A DNA stretch of 64,000 nt from Escherichia phage BYEP02. The translations under genes and the position numbers were made by a program. Location: sequence record OR757454.1. The stretch is one strand, 5' to 3'. The notes below the pieces were generated by a model. The model was given only the letters and a program-made list of their open reading frames with translations, had not been told where the DNA came from and ran no database searches. This document shows, one piece after another, positions 18,672 through 62,053 of the stretch; position 1 is the stretch's first letter; each line of letters starts with the position of its first letter.

Positions 18672-20167
18672 ATGACTTTTACAGTTGATATAACTCCTAA
18701 AACACCTACTGGAGTTATAGATGAGACTAAGCAGTTTACTGCTACGCCCAGTGGTCAAACTGGAGATGGACCTATTACCTATGCTTGGACTGTTGATGAT
18801 GCACCGCAGGAAGAAACGTCTGCAACTTTTAGTTATGTACTAAAAGGTCCTGCTGGACAAAAGACTATTAAGGTAGTTGCAACAAATCCAGTTCCTGATT
18901 CTGAAGCTGAAACAGCTGAAATTAGTACAACTATCACAGTTCAAAATAAGACACAAACAACTACTTTAGCTGTAACTCCTGGTAGCCCTGATGCTGGAGT
19001 GATTGGAACTCCAATTGAATTTACCGCTGCCTTAGCTTCACAGCCATCAGGTGCAAACGCTACATATCAATGGTACGTTGACGGTTCTCCTGTGGGCGAA
19101 GCAACTGGCACTACATTCAATTACACTCCTGACGCAAGCGGAGTTAAAACAATTAAGTGTGTAGCTCAAGTAACCGCGACAGATTATGATGCAAAGGAAG
19201 TTACTTCTAATGAAGTGTCACTGACTGTTAATAAGAAAACACAGACAACTACGTTAGCCGTAACTCCTGCTAATCCTCCAGCAGGAGTTATTGGAACCCC
19301 AGTTCAATTTACTGCTACCTTGGCTTCACAGCCACCAGGAGCGTCTGCTACGTATCAGTGGTATGTTGACGGTTCTCTGGTCGATGGAGAAACTACTACT
19401 ACATTTAACTATACTCCTACCACAGTTGGAGCTAAAACAGTTAAGTGTGTAGCGCAAGTAACTGCAGAAAATTACAATGAAAAGGAAGTTACTTCTAATG
19501 AAGTATCATTGACTGTTAATAAGAAAACAATGAATCCACGGGTTACATTGACTCCTCCTTCTATTAACGTTCAGCAAGATGCTTCGGCTACATTTACTGC
19601 TAATGTTACGGATGCTCCAGAAGAAGCACAAATCGAATATTCATGGAAGAAAGATTCTTCTCCAGTAGAAGGGTCAACTAATGTATACACTGTTGATACA
19701 TCATCTATTGGAAGTCAAACTATTGAAGTTACTGCAACTATTACTGCAACTGATTACGATAGCAAAACTATTACAGCAGAAGGTCAAGTTCAGGTAACTG
19801 ATAAAGTTGCTCCGGAACCAGAAGGTGAATTACCTTATGTTCATCCTCTTCCACATCGCACTTCAGCTTATATCTTGATAAAGTTGCTCCAGAACCAGAA
19901 GGTGAATTGCCTTATGTTCATCCTCTTCCACATCGCACTTCAGCTTACATCTGGTGCGGTTGGTGGGTTATGGATGAAATCCAAAAAATGACCGAAGAAG
20001 GTAAAGATTGGAAAACTGAAGATCCAGATAGTAAGTACTACTTGCATCGTTACACTCTTCAGAAGATGATGAAAGACTATCCAGAAGTTGATGTCCAAGA
20101 ATCGCGTAATGGATACATCATTCATAAAACTGCTTTAGAAACTGGTATCATCTATACCTATCCATAA
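18672..20167 (+). CDS. hoc: outer capsid protein Hoc with four Ig-like domains, one 77-nt duplication inside
   Basis: Ig-like repeats (TFTVDITPKTP...; QTTTLAVTP...) and capsid-binding C-terminus ...GIIYTYP; about 472 aa after removing the duplicate. Confidence 0.85.
18949..19542 (+). repeat. diverged in-frame 297-nt tandem repeat inside hoc (two Ig-like domains)
   Basis: Two 99-codon units NKKTQTTTLAVTP...EVTSNEVSLTVNKK, roughly 80-85% identical. Confidence 0.8.
19800..19953. repeat. 77-nt tandem duplication
   Basis: Period 77 verified; 3 mismatches, all synonymous; in hoc. Confidence 0.9.

Positions 20168-27030: not shown

Positions 27031-27031
<1 letters not shown>
26789..27031 (-). CDS. 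67: prohead core protein gp67 (80 aa) with poly-acidic C-terminus
   Basis: 80 aa; [30 protein letters not shown] tail. Confidence 0.7.
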
Positions 27032-28733
<1,702 letters not shown>

Positions 28734-31535: not shown

Positions 31536-34165
<2,630 letters not shown>

Positions 34166-59065: not shown

Positions 59066-59355
59066 TAATGATTCTTTATGCTAAAGTATCATCCATTGAA
59101 AATGGATATAAATATGATCAAGAAGCAGTTAAAGCCTTGATTGATGATTATGGCATTTTAACATGTTTTGAAGTTGAAAAGGTTTATGTTGACCGTTCAT
59201 CTTCTCAAGTTAAATTAGTGAAGGAAGACCGTAAATTTAATACAGTAAATTTTGATTTCTTTATTGAAACAGAAAAAGGTCCTCTTGAATATGATATTTT
59301 CAAGAATCCTTTGGGTCTTGAATGCATCGTAAATATGTATTATCATAAATGGTAA
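59062..59355 (+). CDS. hypothetical protein (97 aa)
   Basis: ORF overlapping previous stop (ATGA). Confidence 0.5.
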   Translation: MIMILYAKVSSIENGYKYDQEAVKALIDDYGILTCFEVEKVYVDRSSSQVKLVKEDRKFNTVNFDFFIETEKGPLEYDIFKNPLGLECIVNMYYHKW

Positions 59356-59506
59356 ATATGCTTTAAGAATTATTTGTTATTATTAACTCATATCGCACTG
59401 ATTAATACCCTCTATCATCAAGGGTTCTTTAAATATGCTTTAAGAATTATTTGTTATTATTAACTCATACCGCACTGATTAATACCCTCTATCATCAAGG
59501 GTTCTT
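59353..59506. repeat. 77-nt tandem duplication
   Basis: Period 77 verified; intergenic, duplicates the MotA-box promoter. Confidence 0.9.
59436..59460 (+). promoter_or_regulatory. candidate MotA-dependent middle promoter upstream of the HNH gene
   Basis: MotA-box-like ATGCTTTA followed about 12 nt later by TATTAT; an identical copy at 59359-59383 lies in a 77-nt duplicate. Confidence 0.4.
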
Positions 59507-59542: not shown

Positions 59543-60151
59543 ATGGATACTAAATTAGCTGAAATTTTTGAAGGAAAACATCCAAATTTTAGTACAGGAA
59601 AGCTGAAAGATAAAATAATAAAAGAAAATATTTTTCCATATGAGTGTGCAATTTGTAAAATTTCAAAATGGCAAAATAAGCATATTGTTCTGCAATTAGA
59701 CCATATTGACGGAAATAACAAAAATCATCTTAAATCAAATTTAAGATTATTATGTCCAAATTGCCATTCGCAAACTGATACTTTTGCTGGTAAAAATATT
59801 AAAAATAATAAAAAGCGTTATAATGTTAGTGATGAAGAAATTTTAAACGCATTATTAAATTCTGCTACTATATCATCTGCAATTACTTCATTAGGTTTAA
59901 GTAAAGGCGGAAACTATAAAAGATTCATTAAAATTGCTAATGATAATAAATTATATCATTTACTGGTAAATATTAATGAAAACATTTTAACTGATGAAAT
60001 TTACGAAGAATTAGTTAAAATTGATTATTCTAAATTTGGATGGGTTAGTAAAGCTGCTAAAATAATAGGTATAAGCCCACAAAAAGCTAGAAAATGGATA
60101 GAACGAAAGTGTCCAGAATTGATAGAACAATCTTTTTCACGTAATAAATAA
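59543..60151 (+). CDS. HNH homing endonuclease
   Basis: HNH motif HIDGNNKNHLKSNLRLLCPNCH; sits directly upstream of the tRNA cluster; MotA-box promoter upstream. Confidence 0.75.
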   Translation: MDTKLAEIFEGKHPNFSTGKLKDKIIKENIFPYECAICKISKWQNKHIVLQLDHIDGNNKNHLKSNLRLLCPNCHSQTDTFAGKNIKNNKKRYNVSDEEILNALLNSATISSAITSLGLSKGGNYKRFIKIANDNKLYHLLVNINENILTDEIYEELVKIDYSKFGWVSKAAKIIGISPQKARKWIERKCPELIEQSFSRNK

Positions 60152-60249: not shown

Positions 60250-60323
<74 letters not shown>

Positions 60324-60477
60324 ATTTAATTTACTCCGTGTAGCTCAGTTTGGTAGAGCGTCTGCTTTGGGAGCAGAATGTCGCAGGTTCAAATCCTGCA
60401 ATTTAATTTACTCCGTGTAGCTCAGTTTGGTAGAGCGCCTGATTTGGGATCAGGAGGTCCAAGGTTCAAATCCTTGT
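60324..60477. repeat. 77-nt tandem duplication (diverged copies) over tRNA-Pro
   Basis: Period 77; 10 mismatches in the 3' 40 nt, arranged as compensatory pairs in the anticodon and T stems. Confidence 0.85.
60334..60400 (+). pseudogene. truncated tRNA-Pro-like copy lacking the 3' acceptor strand
   Basis: Copy 1 of a 77-nt duplication; 5' 37 nt identical to tRNA-Pro, anticodon and T stems differ by compensatory changes. Confidence 0.6.
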
Positions 60478-60484
60478 ATGGAGA
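60411..60484 (+). tRNA. tRNA-Pro (anticodon TGG)
   Basis: Acceptor CTCCGTG/TATGGAG (G-U pairs); anticodon loop TTTGGGA; T-arm GGTTCAAATCC. Confidence 0.75.
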
Positions 60485-60486
60485 CT

Positions 60487-60576
60487 GGAGGCGTGGCAGA
60501 GTGGTTTAATGCACCGGTCTTGAAAACCGGCAGTCGCTCCGGCGACTCATAGGTTCAAATCCTATCGCCTCCGCCA
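60487..60576 (+). tRNA. tRNA-Ser (anticodon TGA), type II
   Basis: Acceptor GGAGGCG/CGCCTCC; anticodon loop CTTGAAA; long variable arm; CCA encoded. Confidence 0.8.
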
Positions 60577-60685
60577 GTTTTGCTGATTTAGCTCAGTAGG
60601 TAGAGCACAGTCGCTCCGGCGACTCATAGGTTCAAATCCTATCGCCTCCGCCAGTTTTTGCTGATTTAGCTCAGTAGGTAGAGCA
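60532..60685. repeat. 77-nt tandem duplication over the tRNA-Ser/tRNA-Thr junction
   Basis: Period 77; one T indel between copies; makes a chimeric pseudo-tRNA. Confidence 0.9.
60583..60653 (+). pseudogene. chimeric tRNA fragment (Thr 5' part fused to Ser 3' half)
   Basis: Created by the 77-nt duplication at 60532-60685; no matching acceptor stem. Confidence 0.6.
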
Positions 60686-60735
60686 CCTCACTTGTAATGA
60701 GGACGTCGGCGGTTCGATTCCGTCAATCAGCACCA
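60660..60735 (+). tRNA. tRNA-Thr (anticodon TGT)
   Basis: Acceptor GCTGATT/AATCAGC; anticodon loop CTTGTAA; T-arm GGTTCGATTCC; CCA encoded. Confidence 0.8.
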
Positions 60736-60820: not shown

Positions 60821-60907
60821 GGGGAGTTATCCCGTAGAGGTAGCGGTGTGGACTGTAAATTCATTGTCATTGCGACTCGGGTGGTTCGACTCCACCACTC
60901 CCCACCA
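60821..60907 (+). tRNA. tRNA-Tyr (anticodon GTA), type II
   Basis: Acceptor GGGGAGT/ACTCCCC; anticodon stem GTGGA/TTCAT with two G-U pairs; loop CTGTAAA; long variable arm; T-arm GGTTCGACTCC. Confidence 0.55.
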
Positions 60908-61625: not shown

Positions 61626-61885
61626 GAAACCGGGTCGCTACCGGTAAGTCGTCGGACTGATGTTCCCTGAGTAAGGAATTGCGTTAATAATCTTTGCGTT
61701 TATTGATGCCCTCTTACATCACAGCAGAAACGGCGCACCGAATTATCGATTCGAGGAAATATCTTTGCCGTAAGCCGAGTAGCGTTTTTGACGGAACGTT
61801 CGGATATGGTCGAGATATGGCCTTTTAAAAATATTGAGTAGCGTCAACTGCTTAATAACCGGGTTCGAATCCCGGCGTTTCGTAC
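61626..61885 (+). ncRNA. candidate structured RNA with a tRNA-like T-arm at its 3' end
   Basis: About 260 nt with no ORF of 60 aa or more on either strand; 3' CCGGGTTCGAATCCCGG T-arm followed by CGTTTC complementary to the 5' GAAAC. Confidence 0.3.
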
Positions 61886-61934
61886 AAACACTTGCCTTAG
61901 CAGGTGGAACCCCGACAAGGTTGCCGCAAGGCTT

Positions 61935-61962
61935 AGCCCCGACCGAAAGGTTGGGGCTTTTT
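61935..61962 (+). terminator. terminator-like hairpin AGCCCCGACCGAAAGGTTGGGGCT + T5 (81-nt unit, copy 1)
   Basis: GNRA-loop hairpin plus U-tract. Confidence 0.55.
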
Positions 61963-62015
61963 GGTATAACACTTGCCTTAGCAGGTGGAACCCCGACAAG
62001 GTTGCCGCAAGGCTT

Positions 62016-62043
62016 AGCCCCAGCCGAAAGGTTGGGGCTTTTT
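62016..62043 (+). terminator. terminator-like hairpin, 81-nt unit copy 2
   Basis: Same hairpin with two substitutions, plus U-tract. Confidence 0.55.
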
Positions 62044-62045
62044 AG

Positions 62046-62053
62046 TATAAATA
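62046..62053 (+). promoter_or_regulatory. late promoter core TATAAATA (internal-protein-like gene)
   Basis: Exact motif 37 nt upstream of ATG 62090. Confidence 0.55.

Follow-up and report, generated by a model that had tools for sequence, protein, structure and literature searches.

The two short duplications in the tRNA cluster of the window (the whole stretch of DNA that was analysed, 64,000 nucleotides of record OR757454.1 from Escherichia phage BYEP02) are almost certainly computational stitching artefacts with a k of 77, derived from a mixed-genotype dataset and, judged from the sequence, forming no feature of a phage genome. Both repeats are untrimmed overlaps at joins, and nothing about them is particular to the tRNA cluster. 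The window consists of about 56 consecutive Tequatrovirus pieces, each starting about 77 nt before the end of the previous one with the overlaps left unmerged, and a two-copy 77-nt tandem repeat therefore stands at every join. At the first join in the cluster, the outgoing piece, with a tRNA-Pro of the PP01/PST type, halts after the T arm, and the incoming one resumes inside the Gly-Pro spacer as slur03/T2-type sequence. At the second, the outgoing piece halts 27 nt into tRNA-Thr and its successor resumes within the variable arm of tRNA-Ser.

The tRNA cluster and its two repeats

The T4-like (Tequatrovirus) tRNA cluster is located at the right end of the window, where ARAGORN identified ten tRNAs on the + strand between 60158 and 61256: Leu, Gly, Pro, Ser, Thr, Met(CAT), Tyr, Asn, His and Arg. 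Most of them have been recovered with the Rfam tRNA model; tRNA-Tyr (60821-60903) was kept only under the related tRNA-Sec model, with 30.9 bits against a gathering score of 47. Tandem Repeats Finder (TRF) places two repeats of period 77 and 2.0 copies within this cluster, one at 60322-60474 with 90% matches and one at 60531-60686 with 98% matches and one indel. The features concerned are as follows:

60322-60398, + strand: copy 1 of the first 77-nt repeat, equal to the last 77 nt of the upstream piece
60399-60475, + strand: copy 2 of the first repeat, the initial 77 nt of the next piece; slur03/T2-type, running on into the complete tRNA-Pro
60411-60485, + strand: complete tRNA-Pro (TGG), slur03/T2-type allele; ARAGORN, and Rfam at 66.8 bits
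60487-60576, + strand: complete tRNA-Ser (TGA); ARAGORN and Rfam; its 3' part lies inside copy 1 of the second repeat
60531-60607, + strand: copy 1 of the second repeat, 77 nt, with the 3' part of tRNA-Ser, a TTTT spacer and the 5' part of tRNA-Thr; ends a 212-nt piece
60608-60685, + strand: copy 2 of the second repeat, 78 nt, spacer TTTTT; opens the next piece
60660-60735, + strand: complete tRNA-Thr (TGT); ARAGORN and Rfam

Copy 1 of the first repeat (60322-60398) contains the Gly-Pro spacer and positions 1-65 of a tRNA-Pro of the PP01/PST-type allele, and at 60398/60399 the junction is formed by CAAATCCTG directly followed by CAATTTAATTT. The two copies differ at eight positions (60361, 60365, 60373, 60377, 60379, 60383, 60384 and 60398); an apparent ninth difference at 60399, the final base of the T stem, is base 1 of copy 2. 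The differences are arranged in four compensatory pairs, at tRNA positions 27-43 and 31-39 in the anticodon stem and 49-65 and 50-64 in the T stem, together with one change in the variable loop. The anticodon TGG is the same in both copies. In the preliminary description ten differences in compensatory pairs had been given, with the anticodon TGG kept; the pairing and the anticodon stand, and the count has to be lowered to eight or nine.

The first Pro copy had also been described as lacking a 3' acceptor strand, and this is what the tRNA models return. ARAGORN calls the second copy alone (60411-60485) and not the first (60334-60399), so that a tRNA search of the window reports only one Pro copy, not both, as complete. 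With the Rfam tRNA model the first copy yields a local match at 60341-60399, covering model positions 8-63 of 71 with 49.6 bits, and when folded alone it lacks an acceptor stem, its D, anticodon and T arms being well formed. As no seven-base-pair acceptor stem closes the cloverleaf, the first Pro copy is not a functional tRNA.

The copies of the second repeat (77 and 78 nt) differ by one indel in the T-run of the spacer, and their junction reads GTAGAGCA directly followed by CAGTCGCTCC at 60607/60608. The supposed fusion of a tRNA-Thr 5' part to a tRNA-Ser 3' half was correctly recognised: 27 nt from the 5' end of tRNA-Thr (60582-60608) are followed without a gap by 45 nt from the 3' end of tRNA-Ser (60609-60653). 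ARAGORN makes no call in this fusion (60582-60653), and the Rfam tRNA model matches it at 60589-60642 (model positions 8-63) with 25.3 bits, below the gathering score of 29. With a sub-threshold score and an incomplete cloverleaf, the fusion is likewise not a functional tRNA. Both extra copies are thus non-functional as written, as had been stated, neither being called complete by ARAGORN or by the Rfam model.

Two natural alleles meet at the first join. The 66 nt of the truncated Pro copy match, at 100% (66/66), the tRNA-Pro of 52 Tequatroviruses in GenBank, among them PP01, PST, HY03, fPS-90 and Lutter, and most of these records annotate a tRNA-Pro; the gene of PP01 itself is a complete tRNA-Pro(TGG) according to ARAGORN. 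The earlier reading of the variant as a naturally evolved homologous tRNA is therefore upheld, and its arms, when compared with those of other T4-like phages, are those of the PP01/PST-type allele of complete tRNA-Pro genes. In contrast to the PP01/PST-type gene, the copy in the window lacks the final 9 nt (CGCGGAGAC in PP01), because the piece ends there. The 75 nt of the complete copy, of the slur03/T2 type, are found with at least 99% identity in 241 GenBank records. In a four-way alignment the upstream piece is PP01-type at every variable position and stops after CCTG, where PP01 goes on with CGCGGAGAC, and the next piece restarts within the Gly-Pro spacer with slur03-type sequence. The upstream haplotype, composed of the HNH gene, Leu, Gly and the PP01-type Pro, is present in GenBank at 99.0-99.5% in S2_01, UTI-E4, Lutter and Killian. 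The proposal of two sources is in agreement with these data, the piece ending at 60398 being PP01-type and the piece starting at 60399 slur03/T2-type. The compensatory changes reflect true covariation that arose in nature between two alleles already known; a bad join falling within the gene has set these side by side. The Ser/Thr join is the same phenomenon at a place where the copies differ in the length of the T-run (TTTT or TTTTT).

The closest GenBank records are those of Escherichia phages slur03, slur08 and slur14, with 99.3% identity over the tRNA region. These three span 1047 nt, against 1201 nt in the window query, and the shortfall equals 2 x 77. The cluster of the slur03/ACG-C40 type comprises, in this order, HNH, Leu, Gly, Pro, Ser, Thr, Met(CAT), Tyr, Asn, His and Arg. 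When both repeats are collapsed by removal of copy 1, an ordinary cluster of ten tRNAs is obtained, identical to slur03 at 944 of 945 positions and corresponding to this type in all ten tRNAs and their order, whereas the window as written holds an additional truncated Pro and an additional Thr-5'/Ser-3' fusion. Junction 1 was not found in IMG/VR, and junction 2 was not found in JGI metagenomes or GTDB genomes.

The truncated Pro and the Thr/Ser fusion could alternatively be natural tRNA pseudogenes, or genes of tRNA-derived small RNAs kept by the phage, and the well-formed D, anticodon and T arms retained by the truncated Pro would suit such a role. These arms, on the other hand, come from no more than a PP01-type allele truncated by the join, the period is the same as at all other joins, and the extra copies occur in none of the closest matches listed, from 950 matching GenBank phage records. 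This explanation is regarded as having virtually no chance of being correct.

Directly upstream of tRNA-Leu lies an ORF of an HNH-type endonuclease (59544-60151, + strand) with the motif CPNCHSQT, whose counterparts are annotated as HNH homing endonucleases in some GenBank relatives. Clusters of the PP01 type have a tRNA-Gln at the place of this ORF and carry segB further downstream. Tequatrovirus clusters are known to vary in this manner.

The 77-nt period across the window

The 64-kb window was scanned for two-copy repeats at every period from 20 to 199, with a cut-off of at least 85% identity over one period. Period 77 accounted for 53 gapless repeats and period 81 for one; all remaining periods in this range yielded nothing. 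Duplication on this scale greatly exceeds what chance would give, and its constant length is the main point. Exact copies were found in 21 of the 53 repeats of period 77; the others contain 1-9 mismatches, whose distances from one another are often divisible by three, a pattern that synonymous divergence of related strains would produce. Together with the repeat of 77/78 nt within the cluster, the following set is obtained:

1274-62982, no strand: span of the 55 join duplications, namely 53 gapless ones of period 77, one of 77/78 nt (at 60531) and one of 81 nt (at 61887)

The 55 joins cut the window into 56 pieces of 212-5649 nt, the median spacing of the joins being about 850 nt. In agreement with the scan, TRF reports more than 50 repeats of period 77 over the whole window with 1.9-2.1 copies at each, including a third one (59353-59506) a short way upstream of the two in the cluster. 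When the window is aligned to slur03 by blastn, it falls into 56 collinear blocks; from one block to the next the reference position moves back by 77 nt (73-89 as aligned). The identity of the blocks to slur03 ranges from 100% down to about 96%, with a lower value for the piece with a hoc-like gene.

That piece, about 89-91% identical to slur03, is the most divergent part of the window. Its gene, annotated in slur03 as 'phage capsid and scaffold protein' and read here as hoc-like, contains a natural two-copy tandem repeat of 288 nt (18951-19529, 80% matches), unrelated to the 77-nt joins. The sole overlap of 81 nt (61887-62050) is situated in non-coding sequence downstream of tRNA-Arg, and a 4-nt indel between the window and slur03 is present just past it. 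A tRNA-like T-arm motif, GGGTTCGAATCCC, occurs near this join at about 61862-61874; the join region has no Rfam match at E <= 1.

The effect of the repeats on the coding content is considerable. By tblastn against the window, 33 of 70 slur03 proteins are split between reading frames with overlaps of about 25 aa, as the repeats frameshift the genes because 77 is not a multiple of three. Among the split genes, some of them baseplate genes, are those of gp20 (portal), gp17 (large terminase, two joins), gp16 (small terminase), gp18 (sheath), gp5 (five joins), gp6, gp7, gp8, gp12, gp13, gp14, gp24, gp27, gp29 and UvsW. After removal of either copy at all 55 joins, 31 of the 33 split genes return to a single frame; the two that are not restored are affected by no join. 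A phage with the genome as written could not be viable.

Of the proteins peculiar to the artefact, two have no counterpart on record: the frameshifted piece of the terminase (32413-33525, minus strand) and that of gp16 (33700-34080, minus strand). For a third, the portal fragment of 304 aa encoded at 27031-27945 (minus strand), records exist, all of them in three fragmentary and unrelated metagenome scaffolds of ENA.

These three T4-like scaffolds, ERZ28582680, ERZ28563777 and ERZ28599095, carry the same 304-aa C-terminal portal product. They were considered as kin of the artefact in the window and rejected: no period-77 repeats were found in them, and the truncation of the portal gene has different causes there, namely an N gap, the end of a contig or further defects.

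The duplications might instead be genuine tandem duplications in phage DNA, generated by homing-endonuclease-driven amplification or by illegitimate recombination between co-infecting phages. The homing endonuclease SegB is reportedly needed for the T4 tRNA gene region to be inherited preferentially in co-infection, T-even tRNA regions are swapped between co-infecting phages, and an HNH endonuclease gene is located just upstream of the repeats. Tandem amplification of a tRNA locus has been documented in phage T6, where a 718-bp unit containing a full-length tRNA-Tyr and segB is amplified under Septu pressure in a SegB-dependent manner, giving copy ladders (PMC13096335). The window resembles that system in showing tandem repetition within a T-even tRNA cluster. 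In T6, however, many identical copies arise at a single selected locus (PMC13096335), whereas the window has two copies at each of 55 sites. Its units are 77 nt long, compared to 718 bp in T6, and contain no complete tRNA gene. The Pro copies, which differ at eight positions, are different alleles, whereas amplification would yield identical copies, and a SegB homologue, looked for in the window, was not found. Moreover, the same length of 77 nt recurs at 53 other sites, some of them inside essential genes, which it frameshifts. Real tandem duplication is strongly disfavoured by this genome-wide period-77 pattern, and its probability is considered very low.

Should the 77-nt step-back repeats nevertheless be physically present in the DNA, as in a chimeric or engineered construct or after template switching when two T4-like phages infect together, the tRNA-Pro junction would record a real inter-strain recombination. 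Such a case is judged to be extremely improbable.

Origin of the joins

The pieces carry, as their alleles indicate, sequence from at least two related T4-like genotypes, and the joins have a direction. Of the two copies, copy 2 is the one nearer to slur03 at 28 joins, compared with 5 joins for copy 1 (p = 7e-5). Summed over the pieces, the mismatches to slur03 number 11 in the first 77 nt (copy 2) and 78 in the last 77 nt (copy 1). A piece typically opens with several hundred bases identical to slur03 and diverges toward its 3' end. In five pieces a mismatch stands exactly at position -78, and the piece ends cluster just past variant sites; a mismatch at position +78 occurs in no piece. When a second parental genome was looked for in GenBank, the non-slur03 pieces matched no phage above about 98.2-98.8%. 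The directional joins suggest a reference-seeded or a seed-and-extend process.

One known class of assembly or scaffolding artefact is the untrimmed k-mer overlap between contigs or graph edges that follow each other, for example from a SPAdes K=77 graph, in which adjacent edges have 77 nt in common. For reads of 150 nt, SPAdes goes up to a k of 77 by default, and the graph edges overlap by k. The joins of the window share with this class: (i) one fixed length, equal to a common k; (ii) two copies per join, with flanks that are collinear and step back in the reference; (iii) a position anywhere, in genes, tRNAs or spacers; (iv) their absence from related genomes; (v) the restoration of genes when a copy is deleted. 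In contrast to an exact k-mer overlap, 34 of the 55 overlaps are inexact, one measures 81 nt, and the restart copy is systematically slur03-type; therefore a mixed-strain or reference-seeded step must be involved. Since 32 of the 53 gapless overlaps are not an exact shared k-mer, a strictly exact-graph origin is excluded. Plain concatenation of de Bruijn unitigs has accordingly been rejected as a full account, the lack of any mismatch at +78 being a further point.

For an artefact of stitching, the following course may be proposed. The value of 77, given its fixity, would be a k-mer or seed length. The process probably ran one way, the restart copy being almost always slur03-type and the variants lying on the outgoing end. 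In a sample or dataset of mixed T4-like strains, this could be the work of a restart of the seed-and-extend or reference-seeded kind, or of graph pieces being naively strung together. Extension from 5' to 3' would drift from slur03-like sequence into another genotype and stop; the stopped extension would then be taken up again from the homologous slur03-like 77-mer that corresponds to its final 77 nt, and this seed would be written again.

A computational artefact of another origin than direct assembler output is possible, although doubtful: a deliberate or semi-manual mosaic, in which segments of at least two aligned Tequatrovirus genomes or contigs were joined by coordinates with a fixed step-back of 77 nt. 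The result of such a procedure would resemble that of the drifting extension. The overlap length is fixed in reference coordinates despite up to nine differences or an indel, as a coordinate rule would make it, and an exact k-mer graph would not give inexact overlaps of fixed length. The restart copy that is nearly always slur03-type, and the absence of the sequence and its junctions from the collections searched, are also compatible with such a construction. Against it stand the irregular piece lengths, the clustering of ends just after variant sites together with the five mismatches at -78, which looks data-driven, and the non-slur03 stretches, which match no GenBank genome beyond the level given above.

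Meaning for the window and for Tequatrovirus tRNA genes

The reading of both duplications as stitching artefacts implies that the window is a stitched mixed-genotype sequence with 55 spurious duplications, the main value of which would lie in quality control. Other findings in the window that concern tandem repeats, frameshifted, truncated or chimeric genes, or 'two sources' are probably due to the same artefact. The tRNA-cluster duplications contain no new biology; the biology behind them, that Tequatroviruses carry at least two tRNA-Pro alleles with compensatory stem differences, is already known.
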